A stretch of 64,000 nucleotides of DNA from a bacterium. Its GTDB lineage: Bacteria; UBA10199; 2-02-FULL-50-16; JAJFLM01. The notes under the pieces were generated by a model. That model was not told the DNA's origin. It searched no databases and saw only the letters and a program-made list of their open reading frames with translations. This document shows, one piece after another, positions 29,353 through 63,999 of the stretch. Numbering within the stretch: the stretch's first letter is position 1; every line of letters begins with the position of its first letter. Position numbers and translations under genes: made by a program. The stretch spans positions 2,208,001 through 2,272,000 of the forward strand of contig CBDCFN010000016.1 in the NCBI GenBank assembly GCA_965216315.1, in the 5' to 3' direction.

Positions 29353-31089
29353 ATGAAAATCAAAACGCTATGGATTTGCTTAATTGTAGTCTTAAACAGC
29401 TTTATAAACTTCCGTCTCGTCAATGCCGCGCCTGGAGATTTAGACGCCAGCTTCGGTAATGATGGTTTCGTTGTTACGGATGTCAACAACGGCTCAAGCG
29501 AGCAAGTTTTACGAGCTGTCCTCCAGGATGACGACAAAATAGTTGTTGTGGGCATATCCGGCTCATTATCTTCACTCGACTCAATGGTGGCCCGCTACAA
29601 CTCAGATGGATCGCTTGACTCGGATTTCAGCGGCGACGGTCTCGCCACTTTCAATTTAGCCGCCAGCATGAATGCCGAAGGCTTCCTCGACGCAGCCGTG
29701 CTGGAAGACGGCTCCATGCTGTTGCACGGGCTTAGAGACGCGGACAATGATCCCAACATGGAGGCTTTTGAAGTCATTACCCTAAAAGTCGACAGCCAGG
29801 GTGATGTCATCACAAGTTTTGGAACCAGCGGTTTGGCAACACTTCCTGTCGCCGGCAATTTTATTTTTCCAACAAGAATTCACGTGCTACCGGACGGGAA
29901 ATTTCTCTCCGTGGCTTTTTCAATCGATTCCATGGTGCAGAACGTGACGATCGTCACCAGCCGCTTTGATAGCGACGGCAATTTAGACACTTCTTTCGGT
30001 ACCAACGGCTCGACGAGCACGTCGGTTGGCCTCTTCTTTGCCTTCTTTGCTGCTGTTAATTCACACCTCTTACCCGATGGAAAAATTTTAGTTCCGTCCG
30101 GCTTAGTTGATCCCATGGCCCTAACGTCGCAGGCAGGGGTCGTCCGGCTCCTGGATGACGGCAGCCTTGATACGGACTTCGGCGACAACGGTTTTGCCCT
30201 GCTGGATGCGGGTGCGGGTATTTTAACGGCATTCGGCGACGTCGGCGTACAGAGTGATGGTAAGATCGTGGCGAGCGGCGTCTACGGGTTGAACGCCGAC
30301 GAAGATTTTCTAGTGGCCCGCTTCGAAGCCGATGGCACAATCGACACAAGTTTTGGGCCGGGTGGCCAGGGATTCGCGCACACCAATATCGAGGGAAACA
30401 GTATGGACCGGGCACGGGCCTTGCTCGTGCAAGACAATGATAAAATCGTACTCGCGGGTAGCAGCGAGCTCAATGGCTTAGAAGATATGGCCGTTATCCG
30501 TTACAATCCCGACGGCAGTCTGGACAACGAAGCGACCTTTAGCGAGGATGGCATTCAGCTCATCGACTTTCCGGCCAACATGAATGATGAGGCCAGCTTC
30601 TTGCTCGAGCAACCCGATGGAAAACTACTCGTCGGCGGTAACTCTAATAACGGAACCGACGATGATATTGCACTGACGCGGCTTCTCACCGATCCCGGAG
30701 ACCTGGCTATCGATATTAGCGCCGATCAAACGGAGATTAATTTCGGCGAAGAGATCAATCTTACGATATCCGTCGACAATCTAGCGGACACAACCGCCAG
30801 CAACGTCGTCGTCAGCAGCAATGATCCTGCGGAACTCGACTTGGTGTCGGCCACGCCCACTCAAGGCAGCTGCAACGACACTCTGCCCCTCAGTTGCGAT
30901 ATCGGTTCATTAGAAGGCGTAAGCGCTGCGGAAATCAGTGTCACCGCAATATCAATAGACGTCAGCAACTCTGTCTCGTTCGATGTCTCCGTGAGCGGCG
31001 GTATCGACGACACGGATGCCAGTAACAACACGGCAAGCACGAGCTTTAAGATTGGGGCAGGAGGCGGGTGTAGTTTATTACGTTTCTGA
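29353..31089 (+). CDS. Secreted delta-60 repeat beta-propeller + DUF11-like domain protein with minimal GGGCSLLRF tail
   Basis: Signal peptide, seven QxDGKIV..G / DGxLDxxF repeats, DLAI..TISVDN..ASNVVV..DTDASNN. Confidence 0.88.
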   Translation: MKIKTLWICLIVVLNSFINFRLVNAAPGDLDASFGNDGFVVTDVNNGSSEQVLRAVLQDDDKIVVVGISGSLSSLDSMVARYNSDGSLDSDFSGDGLATFNLAASMNAEGFLDAAVLEDGSMLLHGLRDADNDPNMEAFEVITLKVDSQGDVITSFGTSGLATLPVAGNFIFPTRIHVLPDGKFLSVAFSIDSMVQNVTIVTSRFDSDGNLDTSFGTNGSTSTSVGLFFAFFAAVNSHLLPDGKILVPSGLVDPMALTSQAGVVRLLDDGSLDTDFGDNGFALLDAGAGILTAFGDVGVQSDGKIVASGVYGLNADEDFLVARFEADGTIDTSFGPGGQGFAHTNIEGNSMDRARALLVQDNDKIVLAGSSELNGLEDMAVIRYNPDGSLDNEATFSEDGIQLIDFPANMNDEASFLLEQPDGKLLVGGNSNNGTDDDIALTRLLTDPGDLAIDISADQTEINFGEEINLTISVDNLADTTASNVVVSSNDPAELDLVSATPTQGSCNDTLPLSCDIGSLEGVSAAEISVTAISIDVSNSVSFDVSVSGGIDDTDASNNTASTSFKIGAGGGCSLLRF

Positions 31090-31091
31090 AC

Positions 31092-32876
31092 TTATTGTTT
31101 CCGAACCTGTAATCCCAGCTCGCGCAACTGTTTCGAATCAACATCCGACGGCGCTTCGCACATGGGGTCCTGGGCCTTTTGCGTTTTGGGGAAGGCGATG
31201 ACGTCGCGGATCGACGGGGCGCCGGTCATCAACATAATAATACGGTCGAGACCAAAAGCGATACCGCCGTGGGGTGGCGCACCATACTTCAAGGCATCTA
31301 ACAAAAATCCAAACTTCTCACGTGCCTCGGCTTCGTCTATCTTTAAGAGTTCGAACATCTTTTGTTGCAACTCGGTTTGATGAATACGAATCGACCCTCC
31401 GCCGATTTCGTTGCCGTTGAGGACTAAATCATAGGCCTGCGAACGAATCTCATGCGGCGCCCCGTCTAATTTATCGAGGTCTTCTACTTTGGGCGCGGTA
31501 AAAGGATGATGAACCGCCGTATGTCGCGCCTCGTCCTCGTCGTATTCAAAGAGCGGGAAATCCGTGACCCAGACAAAGCGGAATTCATTTTTAGGCAAGA
31601 GGTCTAAGCGCCGCGCCAGTTCTTCGCGCAAATGCCCTAAGGCCTCATTGACAACTTTGGGTCTATCCGCGCCAAAAACGATCAGGTCTCCGTTTTTAAT
31701 CTGCATTGAGGCTTTAAGTTGTTCTTTTTCCGTATCCGAAAAAAACTTCACGATCGGCGACTGCCATTCACCATCATCGCCGACCTTGATGTAGGCCATT
31801 CCCTTCGCGCCGTAGATGCCGACATAGGCCGTCAATTCATCAATAATCTTACGGGAAAGTCCCGCCTGCCCTTTGACATTGATGGCTTTGATAATCCCCT
31901 TGTTTTCCAGCACGCTTTTAAAGACTTTAAACTGACTCTCTTTAAATATTTCGCCGACGTCGACCAGCTCCAGACCAAAACGTAAATCAGGTGTATCGAT
32001 CCCAAAACGCCGGATCGCTTCTTGATAGGTCATACGCTCAAACGGTAACTTCAGTTCCAAACCCAGCGCCTCTTTCCAAAGCGAACCCACCAAGCCCTCA
32101 ATAACATTAATCAGCGTGTCTTCCGTGACAAAACTCATCTCGATATCAATCTGGGTAAATTCCGGTTGACGATCGGCACGCAGGTCCTCATCCCGAAAAC
32201 AACGCACAACCTGAAAATAACGATCAAAACCGGAAACCATTAATAGTTGTTTAAACAGCTGGGGAGACTGCGGCAGGGAATAAAACTGGCCGTGATAAAG
32301 CCGTGACGGCACCAAATAGTCACGGGCACCTTCCGGTGTCGACCTCGTTAAAAAAGGGGTCTCAATTTCTAAAAATCCCGTCTCCGTCAGATATTTTCGT
32401 GCGGCCTGCATCACATGATGCCGCATCATCAGATTGCGCTGCAGAATGGGACGGCGCAGATCCATATAACGATAGCGTAATCGTATATCTTCGCCGGCAT
32501 CGGTATTGTCCTCAATGAGAAAAGGCGGGGTCTCCGAGCGATTAAAGACTTCAAAGGCTTCGACGGCCACTTCGATCGCGCCGGTCGCCAATTTGTCATT
32601 CTGCATCCCCTCGGGCCGCCGTCGCACGCGACCTCGAATTCCCATCACGTATTCCGTCCTCAGGTGATGGGCCAGTTCATGCACCTTGGCATCATCTTCC
32701 GGATTGAAGACAATCTGCGTCACACCCTCACGGTCACGCAGATCCACAAAGATCAAGCCGCCGTGATCGCGGCGCGTGCCCACCCAACCCATGAGTACCA
32801 CTTCCTGATCTATGGAGTCGGCCGTTAGGTCCCCACAGGAGTGGGTCCGTTTATAGGTATGAAGAAATTCTGACAT
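31092..32876 (-). CDS. aspS: Aspartyl-tRNA synthetase, probably non-discriminating
   Basis: [46 protein letters not shown]. Confidence 0.96.
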
Positions 32877-32885
32877 TCAGCCCGT

Positions 32886-33770
32886 TTATTTAATTATCTT
32901 GAATTCGATGCGCCGGTTCTTGGCTCGACCTGCCTTGGTCTCGTTAGATTCTATCGGGTTGCTGTCCCCGTAGCCTTTGGCCACAACTCGGTGCACGCCT
33001 ACACCCTGCAAAATCAGGTATGCTTTGACAACATTTGCACGCGCAATGGTCAAGGCCTCATTGATGGCCGAATCTCCCGAATTGTCGGTATACGCGGATA
33101 CCTGAACTTTGGGGACCTCATTAGGCTTCTCTTTCATGATCGACGCGACGCGCTCGAGTACGCGGCGGTCTCCGTCCGAGAGGTTGGTCGACCAGGCATT
33201 AAAGAGAAAGGGCGGCGTCTTGATTTGACTCTTTTCGGCATCGACAGATACGTCGGCACGCATCGGAACCGACCGGCGTCGCGTCGAGACCCGGGTTCCA
33301 CCCAGCCACATCGGTTCATTGGCTCCAATCGCCAAATCCGACTCATGCGCTCCGCCGCTGCTCGCGGCCGGCGCTGAATAACTGGGTGGTGGCGGTGCCG
33401 CGGCGACAGAACCCGAATGACCTCTCATCCGTGCGTCGCGACGTGCGGCCGCACTGCCGGTTTCTAACTGCAGATCTGACTCGACACCCGTATTGGATGA
33501 CGAGGGTTCCGGTGGGGGAGGCGTATAATGAGGTTCCGGGCGCGGCGTCGGTGTGACCGCCGAGCCACCTTCTCCTCTCATCCGTCGGTTCCTGCGTTCC
33601 GCTTCCTCGGGACTCTCCATCGCACCTTGAACATCCGCTTCATGGGCACGCCGTAGCCGCTCCGCTTCCGGGGACCCTTCTTCGGCAATCCCCAACGGCT
33701 CTTGTGCCATCGTCATCGCCGGTATTAATAACAAACCTGTTGCCAACAGCAGGTACATTTTTATTTTCAT
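32886..33770 (-). CDS. OmpA-C domain protein with disordered repetitive N-terminus
   Basis: Signal peptide; YTDNSG..N..L...RA..V, GYGDSNP, NRRIEF. Confidence 0.88.
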   Translation of the reverse strand: MKIKMYLLLATGLLLIPAMTMAQEPLGIAEEGSPEAERLRRAHEADVQGAMESPEEAERRNRRMRGEGGSAVTPTPRPEPHYTPPPPEPSSSNTGVESDLQLETGSAAARRDARMRGHSGSVAAAPPPPSYSAPAASSGGAHESDLAIGANEPMWLGGTRVSTRRRSVPMRADVSVDAEKSQIKTPPFLFNAWSTNLSDGDRRVLERVASIMKEKPNEVPKVQVSAYTDNSGDSAINEALTIARANVVKAYLILQGVGVHRVVAKGYGDSNPIESNETKAGRAKNRRIEFKIIK

Positions 33771-33797
33771 GGCTTCTTCCCCCTCGAAATCATTTCA

Positions 33798-35060
33798 TCA
33801 TGACGATTGAACCCGCATGAGCAACGATTCCGCATCATCTAATCCAAGTTCTTCTTGTTCGCTCGTGGTCATATTGCGAAGAATCAATTTCTTCGCCGCA
33901 ACCTCGTCCGAGCCAAGAATCACTGTAAAATCCGCACTAATTCGATTCGCGCGTTTCATCAGGGCCTTCAGCCCTTTGTCCTCATAATTCATCTCAACCC
34001 GAACCCCACCTTGGCGAAGCGATTGGGCGAGCGCTATTCCATGGGACATCGCGTCAGAACCGAATGCGGCTACAAAGACCAAGGGCCCTCGCGGCGGTCT
34101 GGCCTCGGCCCTCTCTTGCAACAATGATACCAAACGTTCGACCCCAATTGCAAAACCCACGCCCGGTAAATGAGGCCCCCCCATCAAGCGCAGCAAGCCA
34201 TCATAGCGTCCTCCTCCAGCCACTGAATTTTGGGCCCCCAGCTGCTGGGAGGTGAATTCAAAGGCCGTCCGCTGATAATAATCGAGTCCGCGCACGATAT
34301 TCGGATTGATCGCATAGGAAGAGCCGAGGCGCCCGATGCCTTGCAGGACCCCATCAAAATGCTCCTCACAGTCATCACAGAGGTGCTCTTGAATGCTTGG
34401 GGCCTCCGCCGCAATCGCACGGCACCCCTCCTGCTTGCAATCAAGGACCCGCATCGGGTTCTTCACAATACGCCGCAGGCAGTCATCACAGAGCCGGTCG
34501 TGGCGCTCGTCTAAATAGCTCACCAGGGCGGCCACAAAATCGGGACGACAGACGGTACATCCCAAGGAATTAATTTCCAATTCGAGATCATCAACACCCA
34601 ACAGGCGAAAATACTGATCGGCCAAGTGAATGAGTTCCGCATCAACCATCGGGTGAGAGGACCCAATCACCTCCGCGCCGATTTGGTGAAACTGGCGCAG
34701 GCGGCCTTTTTGCGGCCGTTCGTAGCGGTACATCGGCCCTAAATAATACAGGCGCGCCAAGGGCTCCGTCTGATCATAATGGCTTTGAATGTAGGCGCGA
34801 ATCACTGAAGCCGTCCCCTCAGGACGCAGGCAAATCTTTTTTCCCTGCCGGTCCTCAAAGCTGTACATTTCCTTTTCAATAATAGCCGTCGTCTCGCCTA
34901 ATGTCCGTGTAAACAGCTCCAGGGCCTCAACCACCGGGGTACGGATCTGCCGATAATTGTAGAGGGAAAATAAGCGATGCGCCTCGGCCTCGGCCTGCTG
35001 CCACAGCGTGACCTCTTCAGGCAATACATCGGCCATTCCTCGGATGGATTGGATGGGCAT
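33798..35060 (-). CDS. hisS: Histidyl-tRNA synthetase
   Basis: LRPEGTA, RYERPQKGRLRQFHQ, RGLDYY, GGGRYD. Confidence 0.97.
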   Translation of the reverse strand: MPIQSIRGMADVLPEEVTLWQQAEAEAHRLFSLYNYRQIRTPVVEALELFTRTLGETTAIIEKEMYSFEDRQGKKICLRPEGTASVIRAYIQSHYDQTEPLARLYYLGPMYRYERPQKGRLRQFHQIGAEVIGSSHPMVDAELIHLADQYFRLLGVDDLELEINSLGCTVCRPDFVAALVSYLDERHDRLCDDCLRRIVKNPMRVLDCKQEGCRAIAAEAPSIQEHLCDDCEEHFDGVLQGIGRLGSSYAINPNIVRGLDYYQRTAFEFTSQQLGAQNSVAGGGRYDGLLRLMGGPHLPGVGFAIGVERLVSLLQERAEARPPRGPLVFVAAFGSDAMSHGIALAQSLRQGGVRVEMNYEDKGLKALMKRANRISADFTVILGSDEVAAKKLILRNMTTSEQEELGLDDAESLLMRVQSS

Positions 35061-35152
35061 AGCGCTTCAATTTACAGAATAATTCAGTTTTATTCAATGA
35101 ATTTAAACGTTTACGCGCTCAGTGCTTCATGCTACCGTCCTCAGACGCCTCT

Positions 35153-36217
35153 ATGAAATTCCTCGTCCTAACCTTATTATTTGTAACCAGCCTGACCACG
35201 AGTGGCTGCTTCAATCCCTTCGAATGCCCTTTGGCCCTCCTCGCCCTCTGTGGGGGGGCCGATCCGGCTGAAACCCGGAGTGTCGATGAATTCTATCCCC
35301 TGGCGCTTGGGGGCGTGGCCCCTGACTGGGATATCGTCAGTGTTGAGGAGGACCTGGAATACGAGCAATTACGCTTTACGACCGCAAACCCTAGCCTGCT
35401 GGACCTTGAAATTCCCGCCGGCGAAACGTCATACGAATCCGCCGGCGCCGCTCAGCTCATTCCCATCGACGTCGGCATCACGACAAATACCATCGAAACG
35501 ATTAGTAACGGTGAAAGCGATGTCGTTTTGACCTATGAAACGATTACTCCGCCGCAAAAGCTCATCCAGATTCTCATTGCGGAATCCCAGGGGCCCATGG
35601 CCCGTGAGGCGAAACTTGATGACGCGGGTCAGGTCAAACGTGGGAGCATCAGCCCAACCGGAGAAGCCCTCGCGCACGTGATCCGCAACCGGGTCGAACT
35701 CATCCGCGAGACCGAAACACCCGGCCTGTTTGCCGCCGACGATTTTGATTTTTATGCCGACCCACCGACTTCTGAATACGATGCGGTAATCGAAGCCCAT
35801 TTAGGCGGAATCTATCAATTCTCACCCGTCGATCCAAGTGACATCAATCATGATATCTACCTCAATGCGGATGAGCGCGCTAACCTGGATGAATCGTTGC
35901 TGCAGCGGGCCTATGACCAGGCCGTTGTCAGTGCGGCTTTTGTCTTCAGCGGAACCCTCACGGATTCCACGCGCGACGCTTTCGGTTTTTATTCCCCGAC
36001 GGACGAAGAATATGATGTCTTAGAGGCCGCTTTACTGTCTAAAACGCGGGACCTCCCTGAAAATATCGGCACCGGCGATGACCAATTTCCGGCCTTTGCC
36101 CCGATTCAGATCTTAATTCTGTCAAATATCGTCACGCGCACGGAGGAGAGTACCGTTCCGGCCTTTGTCTTTGTGAGAACGCGCACGGCAGAGGAACCGG
36201 CGGTTATCGCCAATTGA
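35153..36217 (+). CDS. Hypothetical acidic lipoprotein
   Basis: MKFLV..TTSGC lipobox. Confidence 0.7.
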   Translation: MKFLVLTLLFVTSLTTSGCFNPFECPLALLALCGGADPAETRSVDEFYPLALGGVAPDWDIVSVEEDLEYEQLRFTTANPSLLDLEIPAGETSYESAGAAQLIPIDVGITTNTIETISNGESDVVLTYETITPPQKLIQILIAESQGPMAREAKLDDAGQVKRGSISPTGEALAHVIRNRVELIRETETPGLFAADDFDFYADPPTSEYDAVIEAHLGGIYQFSPVDPSDINHDIYLNADERANLDESLLQRAYDQAVVSAAFVFSGTLTDSTRDAFGFYSPTDEEYDVLEAALLSKTRDLPENIGTGDDQFPAFAPIQILILSNIVTRTEESTVPAFVFVRTRTAEEPAVIAN

Positions 36218-36279
36218 TTATGCTGATAAACCCACTAAAATCATTTGCGATTCTTCGTCTCGAGGACTATGTTCATCCT

Positions 36280-37008
36280 ATGAAGGCTTTCCTCCTCGCA
36301 GCGGTGGGGGCCATCATATTGGTGTTGGCTCCCGCTGAGACGGTCCAAGCTGAATTCTCTGATTCAGTGCTCGGCTCCGTTCGCAATATTCAAGAAAAGA
36401 TACTCCTCCGCGTTCAACGCAATATCACTGGAGCGGATGCTTCTACCATGTGGTCGCTATTTGATCAGGATGTCTTGCGTTCACTCAATGGTGGCGTGAT
36501 TCCCCTATCTACGGAAGCACTCAACCGCAAATATGGGTGGACCGACATTCGCATCCCCCTGACTTATACCGAAAAAAAAGGTGAGATAAAAACAGGCGCC
36601 ATCCGCATTCGTTTCTATCCACTTCCAAGCAGGGCAGCCGGCAGAAGCGACTGGCTTGCAGTTTACTATCACGGCTTTGGTGCAGTCCCTTCCGCCACAT
36701 TTCATATCTTCCGCTACAAAAATAACCGTTATATCCGCGCCGCGGCGATGGAAGAATCCGACTTCCTTCACAAAAATGACAACCTGCAGTGGAATGGAAT
36801 CCAAGTTCAAAAAGAACTCCAGCCTGGTCATTTTTCAACCTATTTTACGCCGGCGACAAGCAGCAAGAGCCGCAACCGCGTCCAGGCCCATTGGCATTGG
36901 AATGGTAAAAAGCTAAAGGTTTTACGCTGGTATCCTGAAGTTGATTTCAGAAAGACGAAAGACGGAACGTATGTCTCAGGGCGCGGCGCACCCGTTTCAC
37001 CGGATTAG
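36280..37008 (+). CDS. Hypothetical secreted protein
   Basis: Signal peptide MKAFLL..VQA. Confidence 0.7.
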   Translation: MKAFLLAAVGAIILVLAPAETVQAEFSDSVLGSVRNIQEKILLRVQRNITGADASTMWSLFDQDVLRSLNGGVIPLSTEALNRKYGWTDIRIPLTYTEKKGEIKTGAIRIRFYPLPSRAAGRSDWLAVYYHGFGAVPSATFHIFRYKNNRYIRAAAMEESDFLHKNDNLQWNGIQVQKELQPGHFSTYFTPATSSKSRNRVQAHWHWNGKKLKVLRWYPEVDFRKTKDGTYVSGRGAPVSPD

Positions 37009-39255: not shown

Positions 39256-39268
39256 GGGGAAGGTCTTC

Positions 39269-42019: not shown

Positions 42020-42091
42020 AGTGATACCTACTTAAAAGGCCGTTTAGAACTTTTGCAATGGGATTTTGAGGTCCGAGGTCCGACGGCTGGT

Positions 42092-42301: not shown

Positions 42302-42352
42302 GATGAACCTTTATAAATAATATCCACTCACCTTTATATAAGCAACTGATGA

Positions 42353-42515: not shown

Positions 42516-43313
42516 TTACAGGTAAAGTTTTCGCGTGAGCGCCAGATACCAATCGAGAATCTGGGGACCATAAAAGAGATAGAGCCAGGCCGCGAAGGCC
42601 AGGAAGGGCCCATAAGGGATGGCCTGCTTGAGCCCCTTACGGGAGAGCCCCAGATAGATCAGGCCTATTACGGTCCCGAGCAGGGAACTCATCAGCATGA
42701 TGAAGATGACCGACTTCCAGCCGAAAAAGGCCCCCAGCATGGCCGCGAGCTTGGCGTCGCCCAACCCGAGGCCGACGCGCCCACGCAGCCGTTCATAGGT
42801 CCAGCCCAGCACCGCGAGGATACCGCCACCCAGTAAGATCCCGAGCAAGGAATCAATAAAGAGGGCCTGGGCAGGAGCATTCCCGAGATAAAGGTGAACG
42901 ATGACCCCGACCCCGATACCCGGCAACGAGAGGATATCCGGAATAATCAAGTGTTCGAGATCGATGAAAGTAATCGCAATCAAGGGGAGCGTGAGCAAAA
43001 TGAAATAGCCGACATATTGGGGCAGCGTGGGAAAGCGCAGCCAGATGGCGACCGACATGACGGCCGTAATCAATTCGACGCTGGGATAACGGATGGAAAT
43101 CTTGCGCCGGCAATGACGGCAATGGCCCCACAACAAGAGATAGCTGATGATCGGAATATTATCGTACCAGCGAATCGTTTCCTTACAACCGATACAACGC
43201 GAGCGCGGCCGCACGATCGATTCCCCGCGTGGCACCCGGTAAATGACAACGTTGAGAAAGCTGCCCATGATCAACCCGAAGAGAGAGACGTAAACGAGTT
43301 CCAAGCCAGCCAT
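42516..43313 (-). CDS. pilD: Prepilin peptidase (A24)
   Basis: GSFLNVVIYRVP, two CxxC pairs, FIDLE, GLGDAKL, IPYGPFL. Confidence 0.95.
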   Translation of the reverse strand: MAGLELVYVSLFGLIMGSFLNVVIYRVPRGESIVRPRSRCIGCKETIRWYDNIPIISYLLLWGHCRHCRRKISIRYPSVELITAVMSVAIWLRFPTLPQYVGYFILLTLPLIAITFIDLEHLIIPDILSLPGIGVGVIVHLYLGNAPAQALFIDSLLGILLGGGILAVLGWTYERLRGRVGLGLGDAKLAAMLGAFFGWKSVIFIMLMSSLLGTVIGLIYLGLSRKGLKQAIPYGPFLAFAAWLYLFYGPQILDWYLALTRKLYL

Positions 43314-45713: not shown

Positions 45714-45735
45714 CTTGATTGAAATGAAATGCGCT

Positions 45736-51444: not shown

Positions 51445-51492
51445 GAGCCTATTCTTAGCATAGTATAATTGAAATTTGCAATACCGTACAAT

Positions 51493-52695: not shown

Positions 52696-52778
52696 CCGAA
52701 TGGGTGTCTCAGATCCCCCTAGAGCGAGTCAAGCTCCCTTTTAACAGTAACCATGCCAACCACTTTACCTATCCTCAG

Positions 52779-54306: not shown

Positions 54307-54424
54307 AATGCACCCAGCCTTGATTAAAGGCTCTGTGCTTGTATCGACTGAAGTTCAAAATTGTACACGGTTTTTTTGACGAATCCTTGCGAATGCGCAT
54401 CCGCGCGGATTCACCTGGGGCAAC

Positions 54425-56500
54425 TTAGCGTTTTAGCAGCAAAGAACAGCCGCCTACACTACGCGCCTTCGGAACGGATGCATCCGAGGATGAATCCGGC
54501 GGATTGACCGTAACCACGTCATCCCCAGGTTGCGTAGATGGAACATTGTCTTCTTCCTCGCTGCTTGGAAACTGACTTTCCGAGCCGGCCTCGACCGGGG
54601 GCTCTTCCCCGTTGTCTTCTCCCGTCATCGAATCGGGAACCAAGCGCGTCGGGAGGCCCATGTTGCCATCAGACTTAGGATCCTGTGCTTCAGGAGTCGC
54701 CGCTCGACCTTGATCCGTGCCACGATCGCGACGTGTCGAATCCTGATCGCTCCGACGGTTCTGACTGGCAACGCGAACGTCGAAAGTCCGCGGCAGAGTC
54801 ATCGACTTAGTCCAGGCTTCCAGCTGCGCCTCGCTCAAATACTCGAGGACATCCTCCGTAAAACCCAGCGCATTTTTTAACGAATACGGCTGACTCACTG
54901 CTGAGATTAACAGGCTGTTACCGGTCATGGCCTTTTGAAACGCCACCATCGCGCGGTCATAATAAGCGCGTCGTTCATGGACATTGTGAATACCGTGCCA
55001 CGTAACCACCTCGGACCAGTCCCCGTGATAGACCTGAAACACGATGTTATCCGCCTGAAAATCCGCATCCTTTTCGGGAAGGAACGTTTTAAACTCAATA
55101 GGTCCTTTATTATCCGCCGCGACATCGATGCGTTGCGCTGCCAATAAATATTGCGGATTGTTATCCGTATCTGCCGCATACACCATGAGCGTCGCCGTCT
55201 TCACATTAAAGAACTGTTCTGGATTTAGTTTTCCGGAGACAAACCAGCCGAAAGACAGCGTGACCATCGACCTGGCTGGCGCCCTTGAATAGGCTGACGT
55301 CCGTCGGCACCGGCAACCTAAACTGGGACTCCATCCGTATCCGTAAATACGAAGTTGTCACCGTTCCCGCCCTGAAAACCGCCACGCGGCATGTAGACGT
55401 GCGGTCGATAGGCGTTACTCTTCACGCCGGCGGCATTATCCGTGAAATAATTATCAAGCAAGAGAAGGTTCCGCCCTTCAATCGCCGCTACCGAATTGTT
55501 CTGAAAATGAGAATCAACGATGACCGTATTGGCGGCCCAGATACCGACTTCGTTGTTCGTCACGCTAACGTGACTAAGAATGACCACTTTGATCACTGAG
55601 CACGCAGATACCGTACTTAAAACCCGAGACCTTAAAACCGGTATAGAGCCCCGGACCGGTAATCACCACACCACACTCTTTACCGAATAATTGATTGTAA
55701 GGAGTGGGATAGCCCTTGCCTTCGGATTGCACGATGCCCGGCGGCAACTGATAGTCCGCTGCTTTGACAAATTCATAGGGTCGCGTCTGAATCCGTCCCG
55801 TGGCATCGCGCTCGTGCGAGAACTCCACACGCGGCCAATGAGCATCTGTCTCAAAAAGCTGCAAGTTTTGCGCATGAGTCACATTATCCCCATGTAATAC
55901 AATGCTGTCCGGACCAAACACCGCTACAGGGCTAAACATTAGAAAGGGTTTTGATAGGGATAAAGTCCTGGATTCCCCCTCATCACTTGCAAAACGAAGA
56001 GTGATACTGTGGAGACGTTGCTTTTCCTGACTCCATTCCGGTGAATTACTTGCATCCAATCCGAAGGTAACTCCCGGCGTATGTTGGAGCCAATTCGGTC
56101 CTGAAAGCTGCATGGCATCCGGAGTCCAGTGTTTAGCAAAGTGCCATTCGGGAGGAATGTCTTCATAACCAATCGTCTCCGTCATTCCATAAATAACGGA
56201 TCCGTATTGCTGGGCGATACCATGCTTACAAGCGGCGTCGTATTTCGAACACGCCGCGTCGGCAATTTTTTGTCGAATATTATATCGTGCTGGTTCCGCC
56301 TGCTTATTAAAATAAAAAACCTTTTGCAGATAAGAAACATCATGGACCGTTATCGGCCAGTCAGCCCCGACAAGATCCACACACTGCCCGGTCGATTCAC
56401 AACTCAGCCATTCTCCGTATTCATCCAGATAGGCCTCGGCCTGCGCCGTCACCAGACTGCACAGGGCCGCTACAATTGATAAAGTGATAAATCGTCTCAT
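54425..56500 (-). pseudogene. Frameshift-split secreted beta-helix protein ending GGCSLLLKR (ORFs 55574-56500, 55318-55596, 54425-55267); pseudogene or assembly error
   Basis: Removing one A at about 55589 gives GICVLSDQ-VVILSHVSVTNNEVGI, paralleling GICVEGGQVLLSRMSISGNGIGV in the upstream gene. Confidence 0.7.
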
Positions 56501-58161
56501 CGTCCACTCCGGTCTGGTCTTTGCAACCGGTTCTTAATCCGCTTGGGTTTCGGCACCGGCACAAACTGACGTGCTGCATCCGCACCAGCCCGCTTTAGTT
56601 CAGTCTGGGGCGCCGCCGGCTGGAGAGGAACCCACTGGAAGTCAGGCGCCTGAAGATTCGCCATCGCCTCTAGTTCTGCCGCGGTAAAGACCGCTACCGG
56701 AATACCGATCGCATAGCTGCGAGGCAATTCATCAACACTCATAAATTCTCTAATCGCCAGGGCCTCCCACGGTTGAGGGCCCAACGGGCTATCAATTGAT
56801 GCCGCAATAAGATGGAGCGGCAGTTCTTTCGAAGCGATGGGACCACTAAAGGCCTGTTCCAGGACCAGGCTGTTACTCTCCGGGATACTATAGAAATCAG
56901 CACTGCCCAGCATGTTTAGTTCCAACCAGCTTTGAGCCACGCCTCCTTGATAAAGACTCGCGTAGACCCCGTGCATGCTCCAACCGGATTCCTGCTTGGG
57001 TTCATTATAGAGGGCGAGTTTCGAATCAGCGCCATCGGAAACAAGCACGGCGCTTTTGAGCAGAAAATCTTCATCGTCCACCCAACCTTGGGGCATTCCC
57101 TTGACCATGTTTCCGGAAAACCAATTCCCTAACAAAAATAAATGCGGCTTCGCGCTCGCACTCAATTCAAAAGTATCACTGTCCTCAAACTGCGAACGCG
57201 CAACAAACAAGGGCGCTTCATCCAGGACCTGCATATGGCTCTCCGCGTTATTCGTAAAGCGGGACTGATTGATGAGTCCACTTGCGACTGCATCACCCAT
57301 CCGCTTAAACCTCACGCCAATCCCGTTGCCGCTAATCGACATGCGGCTCAAGAGAACCTGGCCACCCTCGACGCAGATTCCCACGGGAAAGCCGCTGACA
57401 ATAAAGCGCTTGAGGACGACCGGATGTGCCGATTTGATAATGATCCCGCATTCGCCGGAGAATTCGGGCGCCGGTTTGATCCTCACCGACCACGGTTGGT
57501 TGGGGGCATCAAGCACACTGGAATCCGCCATCCCTAACAAGGCGTCGCCGCGCATGATCAATGGATAATTATTTTGACCTAAGGCGGCGTAGTTATTCCA
57601 AATACCTCCACTGTTTACATTCGGATTGATCACGAGCGGCTCCTTAATCGCAATATCCATGAAGGGCTTAGGACCAATATCTTCTTGATACTTCTTTGGA
57701 GAAAACTGGGGATGATAGTCCGCCGGTGGCTCCGGCAACAATTGAATCGTCGTGGAGGTATAATAAGGGAGTGGCAGACCCCACGCAGCCGGTTCTTCCA
57801 TCATACCGGCCAAATACCACTCCGGTTCTGAATTCGGCCGTACACAAGCAGCGGCGTCTTTTTGATTAATGATCTGCTGTTCAAAGGCGTTACTCCCCTG
57901 CGGCCAGCTGGCTTGTGCCTGGTATTGATCATTAATATTCTGTCCGTCGTCCGCCAGCATCTTCATGATCTTAACGAGATGAGCGCCCATGTCCGCCTGT
58001 GACGGATCAACGGTACAGCTGATCAATTTTTCGCATTCTTCGTAATTAGGACAAGACCAGCCCTCGCCGGCCATCTGGGCCTGGGCCGCTGGGGAAAAAC
58101 TAAACAAGCCAACCACGATCCCGGCAAAGAGATAAATTTTCCGTGAAAATAAAATAGCCAT
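56497..58161 (-). CDS. Secreted protein with a right-handed beta-helix segment
   Basis: Signal peptide ending AQA; ISGNGIGV, FTNNA, GNWFSGN repeats. Confidence 0.7.
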   Translation of the reverse strand: MAILFSRKIYLFAGIVVGLFSFSPAAQAQMAGEGWSCPNYEECEKLISCTVDPSQADMGAHLVKIMKMLADDGQNINDQYQAQASWPQGSNAFEQQIINQKDAAACVRPNSEPEWYLAGMMEEPAAWGLPLPYYTSTTIQLLPEPPADYHPQFSPKKYQEDIGPKPFMDIAIKEPLVINPNVNSGGIWNNYAALGQNNYPLIMRGDALLGMADSSVLDAPNQPWSVRIKPAPEFSGECGIIIKSAHPVVLKRFIVSGFPVGICVEGGQVLLSRMSISGNGIGVRFKRMGDAVASGLINQSRFTNNAESHMQVLDEAPLFVARSQFEDSDTFELSASAKPHLFLLGNWFSGNMVKGMPQGWVDDEDFLLKSAVLVSDGADSKLALYNEPKQESGWSMHGVYASLYQGGVAQSWLELNMLGSADFYSIPESNSLVLEQAFSGPIASKELPLHLIAASIDSPLGPQPWEALAIREFMSVDELPRSYAIGIPVAVFTAAELEAMANLQAPDFQWVPLQPAAPQTELKRAGADAARQFVPVPKPKRIKNRLQRPDRSGR

Positions 58162-58230
58162 GATGTCCTGTCCTTTCGCTCTCAGGCGGTTAAAATAAGC
58201 GCGGCTCCCTGCCGCCTGGGACGAGATATA

Positions 58231-58247
58231 TGCAAGCCGGATGCCAA
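58231..58247 (-). promoter_or_regulatory. Sigma54 (-24/-12) promoter
   Basis: TTGGCATCCGGCTTGCA, about 70 bp upstream of the 58161 start. Confidence 0.75.
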
Positions 58248-58349
58248 GAAGAGCAAAGGGGCAAAAGAGCTAAAATTCTAATAATAACAAATATTTGTAT
58301 ACTTATTATTTTTATAACTGCCTAAAAATACTAGATATTATGGTGATGG

Positions 58350-58370
58350 TAGTCACCATAATGGTGACTA
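58350..58370. promoter_or_regulatory. Perfect palindrome, candidate upstream activator site
   Basis: TAGTCACCAT-A-ATGGTGACTA, about 100 bp upstream of the sigma54 site across an AT-rich spacer. Confidence 0.5.
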
Positions 58371-58402
58371 TTGTCTATTTTTGAATACGAATTATTGGCC
58401 AT

Positions 58403-58439
58403 AAAAAAGGGGCGGTTCTGTAAAGAACCGCCCCTTTTT
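58403..58439. terminator. Rho-independent terminator (bidirectional shape)
   Basis: AAAAAAGGGGCGGTTCT-GTAA-AGAACCGCCCCTTTTT. Confidence 0.88.
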
Positions 58440-58461
58440 CTCAGTAAAGTTCTTTATTGGC

Positions 58462-60276
58462 CTATCTTATTAAACTGCAGCCACCACCAGTCCCAGTCGA
58501 GGTCGTCTCATCCGTGCAATCCGCCGCACAGCCATCGCCGTCATCGGTGTTGCCGTCATCGCATTCTTCGCTGGCATCAACGGTCCCGTCGCCACAGACG
58601 GCCTCCGTTCCGCAGGTGGAGCTACAACCGTCCCCATCGGTCGCGTTACCATCGTCGCACTCTTCACCAGAGTCGACGACGCCGTCACCGCAAAAGGCTT
58701 CAATGCAATTAGTGCGGCAGGCATCGGCCGCGGTATCACTGTTAACGCTTCCATCATCGCAGTCTTCGACATCGGCCTGAATGACCCCGTCACCGCACGT
58801 CGTCGACACACAAGTGTCTAGACACGCATCACCGTTATCGGCATTGCCGTCATCGCAGCCCTCACCGGTATCCGTAACCCCGTCACCGCAAGATGGGTTT
58901 TCACAACTGGTTCGACACGCATCGGGTTCGGTATCGCTGTTGTTGGCTCCGTTGTCGCACTCTTCCGTCGTATCGACAGTCCCGTCACCACACGGACCAA
59001 CCTCGACGGCACCGATGTCGCACGTGCTGGTCCCGTCATTATCGCCATCTTGAGAACGGTCGCTCCCTCGCTGATCCTCCGTCAGGTCCGCGTTGGTTTC
59101 ATCCTTACATCCGCCCGGGTTGCCGGCATCAATGACCGGGCTGTCCTTGAGTGGCCCCAGGGTCAGGGTCGGACCGCCGTTATCCGCTAAGGCGGCCTGC
59201 AAGAGCGGATCCTCTCCGGTGATGTGGTTCGACGTCGCACCACCGAAAGTACAACCGTTGATGTCTTCAAGCAGATTGTAATCATTCGAGGTCAGGGTCG
59301 TGGCGGAACCTTCATCCTTACAATCGGCCGCGGCACCATCCCCGTCCTCATTGACTTCTTCATCGACATTGTCGGCAATAATCGTATTCGCGATCGTCAG
59401 CTCGACTCCCAATGTCCCCCCAAAGGAGATACCGCCGCCATCACCCTGTTCTGTATTGTTGCCCGCCAGGGTCACGCTAAAAAGGTTTGCGTCCACATTA
59501 AAAAAGAAAATACCGCCACCATTATTCAGAGCACTGTTTCCGGCGATGGTGGAATTAACGATATCCACATCGACCGTCGTCCCCACACCTTTGATGTTTA
59601 AACCACCACCCGTGTCCCAAGTCGTTTCATTGCCCGAAATCGTGGAATTCTCGATGAAAACACTCGGTGTCCCGGTGGTCTCATAGACATTGACACCGGC
59701 GCCGCCGGCCCCCGACACACTATTATTGCTGATGGTCGAATTACTGATGATAAGCGCATTCCCTCTGAAATCGATTCCGCCACCACCCCCCTGGCCATGA
59801 TTCTCGGTAATAACCGAATTTTGAACCGTTAGTGAATCCGTTGCATCCACCCGAACACAGACTCCATACGAAGTTGTCGTGGACCCTGTTAGGGTCAGAC
59901 CATCAACAAGAAAAGTCTTACTATTGTCCCCGCTATCAAAAAGGAAAACGCGTCTCGGACCATCAGCATCAATGGTGAGCTGCGACGCACCGGGACCCAG
60001 GATGTCGACCGACTCGGTAATGGCCGGCAAGGCACTGGTCAGCTTGATCGTCCCGCTCACATTGGTCAGATTGATCTCATCGCCCACCGGATTGGCATTG
60101 GCCGCCGCAATGGCATCGCGGAGCGAACAGTCGTTCGTCCCATCACAGGTAGCGGCACAATCCGCTCCACTAGCAGCGACGTCACTGGTATCATCGACGC
60201 AATAAGTCTTGGCTATCGCCGCCGAAGCCGTCGCACTCGTGAACAAGTATAAGAAAACGACAATAAACCGTGACAT
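58462..60276 (-). CDS. Secreted CSLREA / beta-helix / choice-of-anchor Q protein with Cys-rich repeats and GGGCSLIR tail
   Basis: CSLRDAIAAAN, NSTISGN repeats, LADNGGPT..DQRG..CDIGAVE, CGDG..EECDDGN repeats; start MSRF after GGAGGT. Confidence 0.88.
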   Translation of the reverse strand: MSRFIVVFLYLFTSATASAAIAKTYCVDDTSDVAASGADCAATCDGTNDCSLRDAIAAANANPVGDEINLTNVSGTIKLTSALPAITESVDILGPGASQLTIDADGPRRVFLFDSGDNSKTFLVDGLTLTGSTTTSYGVCVRVDATDSLTVQNSVITENHGQGGGGGIDFRGNALIISNSTISNNSVSGAGGAGVNVYETTGTPSVFIENSTISGNETTWDTGGGLNIKGVGTTVDVDIVNSTIAGNSALNNGGGIFFFNVDANLFSVTLAGNNTEQGDGGGISFGGTLGVELTIANTIIADNVDEEVNEDGDGAAADCKDEGSATTLTSNDYNLLEDINGCTFGGATSNHITGEDPLLQAALADNGGPTLTLGPLKDSPVIDAGNPGGCKDETNADLTEDQRGSDRSQDGDNDGTSTCDIGAVEVGPCGDGTVDTTEECDNGANNSDTEPDACRTSCENPSCGDGVTDTGEGCDDGNADNGDACLDTCVSTTCGDGVIQADVEDCDDGSVNSDTAADACRTNCIEAFCGDGVVDSGEECDDGNATDGDGCSSTCGTEAVCGDGTVDASEECDDGNTDDGDGCAADCTDETTSTGTGGGCSLIR

Positions 60277-60315
60277 ACGCACCTCCATAAACCCGCCAAT
60301 TTTTTAGTTCCGCCA

Positions 60316-62628
60316 TTACCGAATCAACGAACACCCGCCGCCGCTGCTAGACGCCGATACGACAATGGTTTGGTTAAACGAACCACTTCCATCGGTACCA
60401 CAATCGACATCAACCGTAATCTGACCGGTCCCTGCCGAACCGGCGGTTAGAATTGTCGTACAAGCGGTGTCATCGGAATAGTTACCGCGCTCTGAAGGAG
60501 TGATCGACCAGCTACAATCACATGTATCGGGCAAATTTTGCGCTAACACGAAAGCCGTTGGCCCCCCACACGTCGCATCCGGCGCATTCAAGGTAACCTG
60601 CTGACCTTCAGTTAACTGAACGAAGTCAACATCCGGGTTGGAGCAGGCCAAGTCGTCTTCCTGTTCGATATTGCAAACATCCGAGCACCCGTCACCGGCA
60701 GTCGTGTTACCGTCATCGCAGTCCTCTCCGCTGTCAACGGTGCCGTCACCACAGACACCGACGCCACCACCGCCATTCTCGTCCGTGCAGTCCGCTGCGC
60801 AACCATCCCCATCTATTGCATTACCGTCATCACATTCTTCACCAGCTTGTAGAACACCGTCACCACAGGCGGTTGCTCCCTCGTTCGTGCAATTCTCTGC
60901 GCAACCGTCACCACTCGTATTATTCCCGTCATCGCATTCCTCACCGGCATCCAAGTTGCCGTCTCCGCAATTGGCCGGCACTTCAAACTGACAGGACGCA
61001 TCGCAACCATCATCGGGATCGTTATTGCCGTCATCGCACTCTTCGCCGGCAGTCATATTAGTTACACTGTCGCCACAAGAAGAACTGGTACAATCGGCAT
61101 TACAGGTGGCTGATTCACCCCCGTCGTCGCAATCCTCTCCCTCGCCAGGCTCCACCACGCTGTTACCACAACCTGGGGCGACAAAAAATTGCCCGTAGAT
61201 TTCAAGCTCGTCTATGGCGAGACCCGCATCGGCATCATCATCGCCTTCCCAGGTGATCAAAAAAAGATTTTCCGTCGTACTGGCACCAATGGCCGGATCG
61301 TTGGCAGCATAATTCGTATCTGTTACCGTATTCCCCATGCTGCTCAACAGGAAGTCGGATTCGAGCTCAGAGCCCGATGATGAAATGCGCTGACCAAATA
61401 TTTCGAAAGCATTATCGGCACCTGTATCATCGTCATCGGCCCGCCAAATGACAAGATATTCATTTGCCGTCGCATTGTGTGAGACTCGCGGAGCCGTTGC
61501 ATCATAAGTTCCGTCATTATCACTGCTCCCCATATCACTAATGCGAAAATCCGACAGTAAAGGTGTCCCGTCATTACCTACCCGACGGCCGAAAATTTCA
61601 TTTTCATTATCAGCCAGACCCGTATCATCGTCATCGCCATACCAGACGACAAGGTACTGATTATCTGTTGAGTTATAAGCCACATCCGGTGAGCGCGCCT
61701 GACGGTTAGCGTCGCTGTCCATGTTACCCATGCTGCTAATACGAAATTCGGAACCATCTTCCGTTCCGTTCGCATTGACAAGCTGACCAAAAATCTCAAA
61801 AGCATTGTCACCACCGGTCGACTCGTCATCACCCTCCCAAACCACTAGGAACTGATTTTCTGTCGCGTTATAGGTAACCGCCGTATTGACTGCATCGAAA
61901 GCTGTATCCGCATTGGTATTTCCCATGTCACTCAGTCGAAGTTGCGAACCCTCCAATGAACCGTCTGTCGCATCAATGCGGCGTCCAAATATTTCCTGGG
62001 CGCCATCAACCGTCGTGCCATTATCATCCGCCTGCCAAACCACAAAGTATTCGTTACTAGTCGAATTGTATGCGATATCTGGATTATCCGCCCGGTAGTT
62101 GGCATCATTATCAGGACCCATCGTACTGATCCGAAAATCAGTTACGTCCGGAGTCCCATCGGCATTAATTATCTCACCATAGATCTCGAATTCATTATCG
62201 GCCAGCGATCCCGAGTCGGCATCACCACGCCAGACAACAAGGTACTGATTTTCTGTAGAACTATAGGCGACCGCAGGTGATACACCGTCATCATTGGCAT
62301 CTCCATCACCATCCATCTGGCTAATACGAAAGCGTGATCCAAGTGGATCCAGGGTATCCGCATCGTAGCGCTGTCCATAAATTTCGAGTTCGTTATCAAC
62401 TATCGAACCGTCGTCTTCATCTCCCTGCCAGACGACTAGAAATTCATTATCAGTAGAATTATAAGCCACGGCCGGATCCTGAGCATCAAAATTAGCATCC
62501 CCATCCGTATCCATAACGCTAATCCGAAAGTCATCCGTCCCGATCTCTGGAGCATAGACCAACATAGACACCAGACTCACAACTATAAACACCATTACAA
62601 CGGAAAAATTGCGTAATGCGTTAAACAT
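60316..62628 (-). CDS. Secreted seven-repeat propeller-like protein with Cys-rich repeats, C-terminal beta domain and GGGCSLIR tail
   Basis: Seven FRISxM..VAYN..N.[FY]LVVW..EI[YF]G repeats; CGDG..ECDDGN..GDGC repeats. Confidence 0.88.
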   Translation of the reverse strand: MFNALRNFSVVMVFIVVSLVSMLVYAPEIGTDDFRISVMDTDGDANFDAQDPAVAYNSTDNEFLVVWQGDEDDGSIVDNELEIYGQRYDADTLDPLGSRFRISQMDGDGDANDDGVSPAVAYSSTENQYLVVWRGDADSGSLADNEFEIYGEIINADGTPDVTDFRISTMGPDNDANYRADNPDIAYNSTSNEYFVVWQADDNGTTVDGAQEIFGRRIDATDGSLEGSQLRLSDMGNTNADTAFDAVNTAVTYNATENQFLVVWEGDDESTGGDNAFEIFGQLVNANGTEDGSEFRISSMGNMDSDANRQARSPDVAYNSTDNQYLVVWYGDDDDTGLADNENEIFGRRVGNDGTPLLSDFRISDMGSSDNDGTYDATAPRVSHNATANEYLVIWRADDDDTGADNAFEIFGQRISSSGSELESDFLLSSMGNTVTDTNYAANDPAIGASTTENLFLITWEGDDDADAGLAIDELEIYGQFFVAPGCGNSVVEPGEGEDCDDGGESATCNADCTSSSCGDSVTNMTAGEECDDGNNDPDDGCDASCQFEVPANCGDGNLDAGEECDDGNNTSGDGCAENCTNEGATACGDGVLQAGEECDDGNAIDGDGCAADCTDENGGGGVGVCGDGTVDSGEDCDDGNTTAGDGCSDVCNIEQEDDLACSNPDVDFVQLTEGQQVTLNAPDATCGGPTAFVLAQNLPDTCDCSWSITPSERGNYSDDTACTTILTAGSAGTGQITVDVDCGTDGSGSFNQTIVVSASSSGGGCSLIR

Positions 62629-62694
62629 ATACCATCTCCCCCTTATTTAATGTACGACTCAGCATTGACGTCTCTCTCATTCCAACTCCATGGA

Positions 62695-63999
62695 TTAACG
62701 CCTAACTAACGAACACCCGCCGCCGCTGGAGCCGGAAGCCGCTCTCACCGTTATCTTCTGGAAGTAACTGCCCACACCGGCGGCCCCGCAGTCAACCGAG
62801 ACCAGAATATTGCCGCCTCCGGTCGTTTCCGGCGTAAAATCCGTCGTACAGGCCGTCGTATCCGCGAAGCTACCGCGGGCACTCGGATCGACCGTCCAGT
62901 CGCAGGTACAACTCGACGGCGCGATCTGGGTCAGCACACTGCCGCTCGGACCGAGGGTCGGATCCGGAGCGTTAAGCGTCTCGACGACACCGACAATCAT
63001 GTTGTTAAAATCAACATCAGGATTCACGCCGGTCAGATCACCGGCGAGATTGGAAATGCAATCCGTCGTACAGCCGTCGGTATTGACGTCGTTGCCATCA
63101 TCGCAGTCTTCACCGGTATCGACGATACCGTCGCCGCAAATCGGCAGGGCACAATCCGACTGACATCCGTCGGCGTCAGTTGTGTTGCCATCGTCACACC
63201 CTTCCCCCGCTGCAGCATTATGGTTGCCATCACCACAGCTTGCGGTCGTACAATCATCATCACAGGTCGACGATTCACCGGACGTATCGCAACTTTCACC
63301 TGCGGTCGTATTCAAATTACCATCGCCACACGTCGCATCCGTGCAGTCATCATCACACGTCGCCGATTCACCACTATCGTCGCAATCTTCACCGGCCGCC
63401 GCGTTCGTCTTCCCATCGCCACAACTGGCAAGCGTACAATCGTCATTACAACTTGCTGACTCGCCACCGCCGTCACAGGCCTCACCGGCCATCGCATTGT
63501 GATTGCCGTCACCACAGCTCACGGCCGAGCAATCGTCATCACAGGTCGGTGACTCACCGGAATCATCGCAGCTTTCGCCGGGATCAATAAATCCATCACC
63601 GCATATTCCACTTTCATAGGCGCCAATATCGCAAACCGTATTGACGGGTCGGGTAAACCCGCGCTGATCCGTCGTGAGCGGGTTGCTGTCTTCATCCGTA
63701 CAACCGCCGGGATTTCCGGCATCAATCGCGGGACTCCCACTAGCCAAGGCATGAGTCTGGGTCGGACCCCCGTTGTCCGCTAGGGCGACCTCAAGGATAT
63801 CAGCGATTACATTGGCTCCGCTGCCAATGATGTTGGTCTGATCGCCCGGTCCCGCACCACCTAAACAGCCCGTGCTATCACCGAGAATGTTGTAGCCTGA
63901 GGATGTCAGCGGACCCGAGCAGTCCGGATGAACCGTAGGTCCTCCGCCAACACTGTCATCGTGATTGCCCGCAATAATCGAATTCTCCACCGTCACGGT
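62695..63999 (-). CDS. 5'-truncated choice-of-anchor Q + Cys-rich repeat protein with GGGCSLVRR tail
   Basis: LADNGGPTQTHAL..DQRG..CDIGAYE, about seven CGDG repeats; ORF runs off the window end. Confidence 0.88.
   Translation of the reverse strand, partial: TVTVENSIIAGNHDDSVGGGPTVHPDCSGPLTSSGYNILGDSTGCLGGAGPGDQTNIIGSGANVIADILEVALADNGGPTQTHALASGSPAIDAGNPGGCTDEDSNPLTTDQRGFTRPVNTVCDIGAYESGICGDGFIDPGESCDDSGESPTCDDDCSAVSCGDGNHNAMAGEACDGGGESASCNDDCTLASCGDGKTNAAAGEDCDDSGESATCDDDCTDATCGDGNLNTTAGESCDTSGESSTCDDDCTTASCGDGNHNAAAGEGCDDGNTTDADGCQSDCALPICGDGIVDTGEDCDDGNDVNTDGCTTDCISNLAGDLTGVNPDVDFNNMIVGVVETLNAPDPTLGPSGSVLTQIAPSSCTCDWTVDPSARGSFADTTACTTDFTPETTGGGNILVSVDCGAAGVGSYFQKITVRAASGSSGGGCSLVRR

Follow-up and report, generated by a model that had tools for sequence, protein, structure and literature searches.

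A short cysteine tail without a membrane helix at the C-termini of exported proteins, a probable descendant of a MYXO-CTERM-like sorting signal

Why should exported proteins with different heads end on the same few residues, with no membrane helix behind them? The question is raised by a stretch of 64,000 nucleotides from a bacterium of the UBA10199 lineage (positions 2,208,001 to 2,272,000 of contig CBDCFN010000016.1, assembly GCA_965216315.1; hereafter the window), in which five proteins finish in a short tail built around Gly-Gly-Cys-Ser-Leu. A first-pass annotation had listed five near-identical tails and proposed that they form a minimal signal for sorting or lipidation. We located all five, which read, each up to its stop codon, GAGGGCSLLRF, VGGCSLLLKR, GTGGGCSLIR, SSGGGCSLIR and SSGGGCSLVRR. 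We also found the GGGCSL core that the annotation had seen joined to a helix and a basic tail in the open reading frame (ORF) at 430-1326, where it is followed by a hydrophobic helix and SRKKL. Here, we show that the short tail recurs on exported proteins throughout this genome and argue that it is probably a shortened form of a longer, helix-bearing signal. The genes of the window concerned are the following (aa, amino acids).

29353..31089, + strand: exported protein of 578 aa with a delta-60/DUF5122 propeller and DUF11, ending GGCSLLRF (tail and stop at 31063-31089)
54425..56500, - strand: broken gene ending GGCSLLLKR (last piece 54425-55267; tail and stop at 54425-54454)
58462..60288, - strand: exported beta-helix protein of 608 aa with a choice-of-anchor Q domain and cysteine-rich acidic repeats, ending GGCSLIR (tail and stop at 58462-58485)
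60316..62628, - strand: exported protein of 770 aa with cysteine-rich acidic repeats, ending GGCSLIR (tail and stop at 60316-60339)
62695..63999, - strand: exported choice-of-anchor Q protein ending GGCSLVRR, the 3' part of a stop-to-stop ORF of 1100 aa that extends past the window (tail and stop at 62695-62721)
430..1326, + strand: exported thrombospondin-type-3-repeat protein with the full tripartite tail (GGCSL, spacer, hydrophobic helix, SRKKL; about 1216-1326), which serves as the long-form comparison

The heads of the window proteins are thus a delta-60/DUF5122 propeller with DUF11, a choice-of-anchor Q beta-helix and the cysteine-rich acidic repeat TIGR02232. Signal peptides had been claimed for the N-termini in view, and this held: they are seen on the proteins at 29353-31089, 58462-60288 and 60316-62628, and the upstream piece (55574-56500) of the broken gene opens with one. 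Two changes of frame, between 55267 and 55574, break that gene; it is a pseudogene, or else the assembly contains errors there. The gene ending at 62695 starts outside the window, and its signal peptide is present in the genome sequence.

We searched the genome (2.96 Mb in 16 contigs, 98.3% complete) as the set of all stop-to-stop ORFs, 2160 of which reach 200 aa. In 23 of these ORFs the Cys of the core G[GA]C[STA]L precedes the stop by 4-9 residues, in 12 others, the long tails, by 30-37 residues, and in just 7 of the 2160 the core lies at least 60 residues from the end. A wider rule, GC[STA]L at most 10 residues from the end, gives 26 short-tail ORFs with the pattern G-G-C-[STA]-L-[ILVM]-[RK] and zero to five further residues. 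This accumulation at C-termini far exceeds chance, and the short tail is a strongly non-random feature. When the 26 tails are aligned on the Cys, the Cys itself, Gly at -1, Ser, Thr or Ala at +1 and Leu at +2 are present in all, Gly at -2 in 22, a hydrophobic residue (Ile, Val, Leu or Met) at +3 in 24 and Arg or Lys at +4 in 25. A second basic residue follows at +5 in seven. The stop comes directly after +4 in 14 tails and after 1-5 more residues in the other 12, so that usually 4-6 residues, and at most 10, follow the Cys. The 12 long tails share the core and supply the helix-bearing counterpart of which the annotation took the short tail to be the reduced version. They run G-G-C-[ST]-L, two small or polar residues (+3 and +4), some ten residues of spacer, a helix and a basic cluster. 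The +3 and +4 residues of the short tails are conserved and unlike those of the long ones, which argues that the residues after the Cys are under a constraint of their own in the short form. Conversely, Ser at +1 and Leu at +2 are conserved in both forms, which fits one shared recognition of the residues following the Cys.

The carriers are 26 Sec-exported, mostly adhesin-like proteins, which fall into at least 10 sequence clusters. Under a rule applied uniformly to all ORFs (a basic start, a hydrophobic window and a small-x-small site), a signal peptide is found in 24 of the 26 short-tail proteins and 9 of the 12 long-tail proteins, against 283 of the 1285 other ORFs of at least 300 aa; judged by eye, 25 of the 26 short-tail proteins have one. 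The proposal that the tag recurs on exported proteins is therefore borne out. So is its description as helix-less, with 4-10 residues after the Cys. TAA, TAG and TGA are all represented among the stops, no helix-like in-frame sequence lies 3' of any of the 26, and an open hydrophobic stretch occurs downstream in either other frame in a single case. Read-through of the stop, recoding or a frameshift into a hidden helix was considered and rejected, as the downstream sequence shows none in any frame in 25 of the 26.

Where does the short tail come from? Within the genome, a long-tail paralogue (E<=1e-10) exists for 13 of the 26 short-tail proteins; the 58462-60288 protein, for example, is 40% identical to its own over 596 aa. 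Across the phylum, the propeller protein at 29353-31089 has 22 homologues with complete 3' ends. Eleven of them end in a short Cys tail (in genomes G001, G010, G073, G074, G075 and G080, and in a paralogue of this genome), ten end in Cys, spacer, helix and basic cluster (in G029, G083, G084, G020, G082, G067, G036, G024 and G073), and one has neither. As a long tail occupies the same slot in paralogues and in homologues of sister families, the short tail is probably a derived form that alternates with the long one. The annotation had counted orthologues that continue into a transmembrane helix as evidence against a genuine tag. Such continuations exist, but in distant homologues from other families, which are 26-34% identical over the aligned stretch, whereas the closest orthologue (G001, 46-47% identity) retains the short tail. 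Since the helix is found solely in distant homologues and the short tail in the closest one, these differences point to descent from a long tail and not to an artefact. The comparisons of sequences thus identify the short tail, in all probability, as a derived and selected form of this lineage's MYXO-CTERM-like signal, conserved within lineages.

To check on the generality of these observations, we used a strict DNA pattern (G-G-C-[S/T..]-L-x-R-stop) and, as control, its reverse. In the phylum, here grouped as 93 species genomes of one class, the pattern has 90 hits in 19 genomes and the control has 6. It is multi-copy in families f1 (8 hits in this genome and 5 in another), f9 (18, 24, 11 and 2), f14 (6), f16 (4) and f5 (2); allowing one extra residue adds further hits in the same genomes. 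Around hits in genomes G074, G010, G077, G079 and G070 we found seven tail ORFs with a complete 5' end, five of which pass the signal-peptide rule. The strict pattern is at background in the phylum to which G094 belongs (seed record titled Myxococcota): its 301 genomes have 12 hits against 17 for the control, at most two per genome.

Several observations concern the long tails and two of the window genes rather than the short tail itself. A further long-tail candidate at G000:C16:1726722-1726832 (+ strand; tail hidden Markov model (HMM), E 1.4e-6) was overlooked by the regular expression. Outside the window, at G000:C16:2348413-2357406 (- strand), an open frame of 2997 aa is made of four units, the first three of which each end with a full long tail (GGGCSL, spacer, helix, RRR) and no stop before the next Met and signal peptide; this layout suggests a polyprotein from which four anchored proteins would be cut. 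Weak internal segments similar to its tails lie in giant ORFs of contig C38 of G010. The 58462-60288 protein has CSLRDAI in the N-terminal part of its mature form (region 60130-60160), which resembles the C-S-L-I-R of its tail; the likeness may be a coincidence, and we take CSLRDAI to be a CSLREA-type motif. Finally, a prepilin (type IV leader) peptidase gene lies at 42516-43313 (- strand), among housekeeping genes between the tagged genes.

The tail had been put forward as a candidate new one, and the collections of models agree with this. No NCBIfam or Pfam model matches the short tails, be it with whole proteins at E<=1 or with 40-residue tails at E<=10. JDVT-CTERM gives the long tail of 430-1326 8.2 bits (cut-off 27) and the short tails no score. 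The MYXO-CTERM model TIGR03901 matches none of the five short tails at E<=10; as it also misses the long tail of 430-1326, it lacks sensitivity in this lineage. A literature search on MYXO-CTERM with an absent helix, or on CAAX-like bacterial tails, found no description of such a tail among the titles and abstracts returned. In the parts of the Haft preprint consulted (10.1101/2023.06.07.544157), the four Cys-type signals are all tripartite with a helix and a helix-less form is not mentioned; the MYXO-CTERM architecture in Guo, Haft and Wall (PMC11980579) is likewise tripartite with a helix.

Which enzymes could act on the tail? As the annotation stated, the window holds no processing enzyme; the candidates, Mrt and Lgt2, are encoded about 300 kb away. 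A search for CPBP proteases that might accompany the tag, which it had proposed, returned a single gene in the genome. This sole PF02517 gene, mrt, is of the myxosortase core type and stands beside a paralogue of the lipoprotein transferase gene lgt.

G000:C16:1904925-1906997: lspA-lgt2-mrt cluster, outside the window, about 300 kb upstream

Mrt, whose catalytic residues are intact, scores 118.1 bits on Mrt_core NF040914 (cut-off 100) and stays below the cut-offs of the subtypes MrtP (175.8; 250), MrtC (129.3; 195) and MrtX (106.2; 180). The CPBP residues EExxxR, FxxxH and HxxxN are invariant in 25 Mrt orthologues, and the Mrt core is present in 40 of 41 relatives. Lgt2 is encoded immediately upstream of mrt, which its gene overlaps. 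It scores 168 bits on Pfam LGT (cut-off 24.9) and falls below the cut-offs of the NCBIfam equivalogs TIGR00544 (103.2; 118.9) and NF000778 (143.2; 334). It is 28% identical to the genome's housekeeping Lgt, which scores better and is encoded 4 kb away, the order of the genes being tamB, an Omp85/POTRA gene, lgt1, an ORF of 169 aa, ileS, lspA, lgt2 and mrt. An Lgt2-type ORF lies immediately upstream of mrt in 42 of the 43 genomes examined, the exception being cut by a contig end. Of 42 other loci, 38 have lspA upstream of lgt2, and the remaining four are cut or have tandem lgt2 genes. No Lgt gene was found within 4 kb of the more distant mrt loci (L022-L042). Two f7 genomes have tandem Lgt2-type genes upstream of mrt (G008:C2:252153-253703 and G081:C52:4322-5875).

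A phmmer search of Lgt2 against solved structures gave no match. A profile of 24 Lgt2 sequences does align to E. coli Lgt (5AZB) with an E of 1e-25, and in it R143, G154, R239 and E243 have invariant equivalents, Y26 corresponds to an invariant Phe and H103 is not kept; the roles of these residues are taken from Mao et al. (PMC4728403). Two further leads were rejected. A Cys-rich C..GCC signature cannot serve as a hallmark of Lgt2, since the housekeeping Lgt of this genome shows it too, along with Cys at the N146 and E151 positions, and an apparent Lgt2-Mrt fusion in G010 (an open frame of 503 aa) proved to be an overlapping open frame, with the genes separate. Tandem pairs of C..GCC Lgt genes occur in 24 of the 301 genomes of the phylum of G094 (L165-L170); they are nearer to housekeeping Lgt than to Lgt2 and have no mrt within 1.5 kb.

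The working model for MYXO-CTERM posits an unidentified "Lgt-like acyl-transferase" upstream of myxosortase action, as set out in the consulted part of PMC11980579. The Lgt2 of the conserved lspA-lgt2-mrt cluster is a candidate for this postulated transferase. How might such enzymes handle a tail without a helix? The reading towards which we lean, by a small measure, is that the short tail is a functional C-terminal signal for sorting or modification, a shortened descendant of a MYXO-CTERM-like tail, on which the Cys is lipidated, the residues after it are trimmed or left, and the protein is held at the surface. The Gly-Gly-Cys-Ser-Leu signature and the basic end would have been retained while the spacer and the membrane helix were lost. 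Once the protein has been exported, Lgt2, or else the housekeeping Lgt, might attach a lipid to the thiol of the Cys on the periplasmic side of the inner membrane. The residues after the Cys might then be trimmed by Mrt, as Rce1 does on CaaX, or left in place since there is no helix to remove, and the protein would be held at the cell surface through its C-terminal lipid. The genome has a secretin gene, and a type II route to the surface would thus be possible. The task of the helix and the Arg cluster, holding the tail at the enzyme, would pass to the hydrophobic +3 and basic +4 residues, and an Asp on arm-2 of Lgt2 is a candidate partner of the basic residue.

This Asp is residue 91 of Lgt2 (G000:C16, within 1905574-1906425), in the motif VEAP-D-YY. 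In the alignment it falls on P83 of E. coli Lgt, where arm-2, an amphipathic element beside the front cleft, begins. Residue 91 was the single column standing out between the Lgt2 of 7 tag-rich and 31 tag-free genomes, and was then surveyed in the rest of the phylum, where three genomes are unreadable at the column and six have no Lgt2 match at E<=1e-35. Asp91 is present in 18 genomes, whose strict tag counts are 8, 5, 0, 2, 18, 1, 1, 0, 0, 0, 4, 2, 24, 11, 6, 0, 1 and 1. Put differently, all nine genomes that reach two strict hits have it, as do 9 of the other 75 that can be read at this position. Where the residue is a different one (66 genomes), five genomes have one hit each and none has two or more. 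The contrast recurs within families. In f9 the hits number 18, 24, 11 and 2 with Asp and 1 and 0 with Ala (two genomes); in f14 they number 6 and 1 with Asp, and 0 both in the genome with Leu and in that with Ala. We regard the association of Asp91 with the tag, seen in these alignments, as suggestive; the Asp could face the basic +4 residue of the tail.

The proposal may be carried further. The short tail might be a periplasmic counterpart of CaaX, i.e. a lipid-anchor signal of eight residues without a helix, with Lgt2 as the lipid transferase of MYXO-CTERM and Asp91 as the reader of the terminal Arg or Lys, an arrangement that would allow repeated loss of the helix. We hold this fuller version to be possible, yet rather doubtful.

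A number of observations weigh against lipidation by Lgt2 and trimming by Mrt, and these results must be interpreted with care. We infer lipidation, enzyme and trimming alike. All the Cys-type sorting signals and Lgt substrates described in the sections we drew on (10.1101/2023.06.07.544157; PMC11980579) are held in the membrane by a helix, and the access of a soluble tail to an intramembrane enzyme is an unexplained step. Mrt and Lgt2 are near-universal in the phylum and most of its genomes lack short tails, hence the tag cannot be predicted from the presence of the enzymes. Long-type segments persist inside giant ORFs of genomes rich in short tails, so short tails are not the sole reason for keeping Mrt there. 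Applied to G010, G077 and G079, the long-tail HMM detects no terminal long tails and does detect weak long-type segments inside their giant ORFs; we did not use the argument that Mrt is kept just for short tails where long ones are missing, because this HMM lacks sensitivity in many families. According to PMC11980579, MYXO-CTERM is cleaved by MrtX in E. coli, a host that has no Lgt2, and a dedicated transferase is thus not required there. As for Asp91, the column was chosen after the fact from about 280. Of 8 phylogenetically independent pairs, about 3.8 go in the same direction, 0 in the opposite one and 4.2 show no difference, and the sign test is not significant (median p 0.125, range 0.06-0.25). 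A perfect tag occurs once in each of five genomes without Asp, and five Asp genomes have no tag; the Asp is therefore neither sufficient nor strictly necessary for the tag.

The lack of a helix also invites the opposite reading, namely that its loss turns anchored proteins into soluble, secreted ones, the Cys tail not being lipidated and serving instead for recognition by a secretion machinery or for a disulfide to an anchored partner. A tail without a helix has no obvious way to an intramembrane lipid transferase, and the occurrence of the same families in both forms within one genome is what one would expect of an anchored and released pair. Furthermore, MYXO-CTERM proteins have been reported extracellularly too (Guo et al., PMC11980579). 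Yet, a released form needs no tail, and here Gly at -1, Cys, Leu at +2, the hydrophobic residue at +3 and the basic one at +4 are kept in 24-26 of the 26 proteins. The same tail is found in other families, and what it retains is the long tail's signature around the Cys. We therefore consider release unlikely.

One might also speculate that a separate enzyme or carrier, confined to tag-rich genomes, reads the short tail, and that the likeness to MYXO-CTERM reflects ancestry alone. This would account for a tag that is patchy (19 of 93 genomes, multi-copy in about nine) where Mrt and Lgt2 are near-universal, and for +3 and +4 residues unlike those of long tails. Against it, we found no exosortase or sortase in the genome, and just two rhomboid-family genes, of a family that also matches in 14 of 14 control genomes. 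Within the window, the genes between the tagged ones (tRNA synthetase, shikimate-pathway, prepilin-peptidase, amidase, helicase) are solely housekeeping genes. A separate enzyme is rather unlikely in our view. That there is no real feature at all, the tails being broken long tails in decay, mistakes of assembly or the result of read-through past the stop into a helix, might be suggested by the one window gene in five that is broken by upstream frame changes, but it is very improbable given 26 loci that end alike with three different stop codons and nothing helix-like after them, residues after the Cys that are conserved and unlike those of long tails, and the same tail in independent assemblies of other families.

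If the short tail is a signal read by this machinery, several consequences would follow. The small C-terminal signals described so far in bacteria and archaea (LPXTG, PEP-CTERM, GlyGly-CTERM, PGF-CTERM, MYXO-CTERM and their kin) are tripartite and held by a helix; a conserved form without one would make the helix dispensable for recognition. It would also tie the bacterial myxosortases closer to the CaaX logic of their eukaryotic relative Rce1, and would provide a tag of eight residues testable for surface display. The lspA-lgt2-mrt cluster would offer a concrete candidate for the lipid transferase that the MYXO-CTERM model postulates, in a step testable by co-expression. Annotation based on HMMs is blind to the short tail, and tagged proteins are thus likely to be annotated as soluble or "truncated".

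How does the short tail compare with known systems? The annotation had called it loosely CaaX-like, and the loose likeness stands. As in the CaaX box of eukaryotes and archaea, a Cys near the C-terminus is followed by small and aliphatic residues (C-S-L resembling C-a1-a2) and by no helix, a protease of the CPBP/Rce1 superfamily is available, and lipidation would be expected ahead of cleavage. The closer correspondence fails, as 24 of the 26 short tails have the Cys in the fifth to seventh position from the end and none of the 26 has three residues after it, the carriers are exported via Sec and not cytosolic, the end of the tail is basic, and the candidate transferase is a paralogue of Lgt and not a prenyltransferase (prenyltransferase families were not searched for). 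The bacterial lipoprotein pathway (Lgt, LspA) comes near in other respects. The candidate transferase is a member of Pfam LGT encoded beside lspA, and the short tail read backwards (hydrophobic, L, S, C, with a basic residue before) resembles a lipobox; but its Cys is C-terminal, in inverted topology, and no hydrophobic signal segment accompanies it. JDVT-CTERM, Synerg-CTERM, CGP-CTERM and GlyGly-CTERM are small C-terminal sorting signals too, the first three with an invariant Cys and CPBP-type enzymes, yet all of them are tripartite with a helix.

The closest system is MYXO-CTERM (TIGR03901). Like it, the short tail stands at the extreme C-terminus of proteins with signal peptides and has a Gly-rich signature, an invariant Cys and a basic end. 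Both have many unrelated carriers per genome, with homologues elsewhere that bear another tail or none, and in both cases the genome encodes a CPBP protease with the myxosortase core, here from its single CPBP gene. The differences are as clear. The short tail lacks the spacer, the transmembrane helix and the Arg cluster, has a single Cys and not GCGC, and matches no HMM. Instead of an Arg-rich end it has a basic residue at +4 (25 of 26) with a second at +5 (7 of 26), which is not a cluster. Its host lineage is outside the Myxococcia, Polyangia and Bradymonadales covered by the Haft preprint. The short tail does not have the helix by which MYXO-CTERM is defined, and is best read as a helix-less variant of that kind rather than as a strict member.

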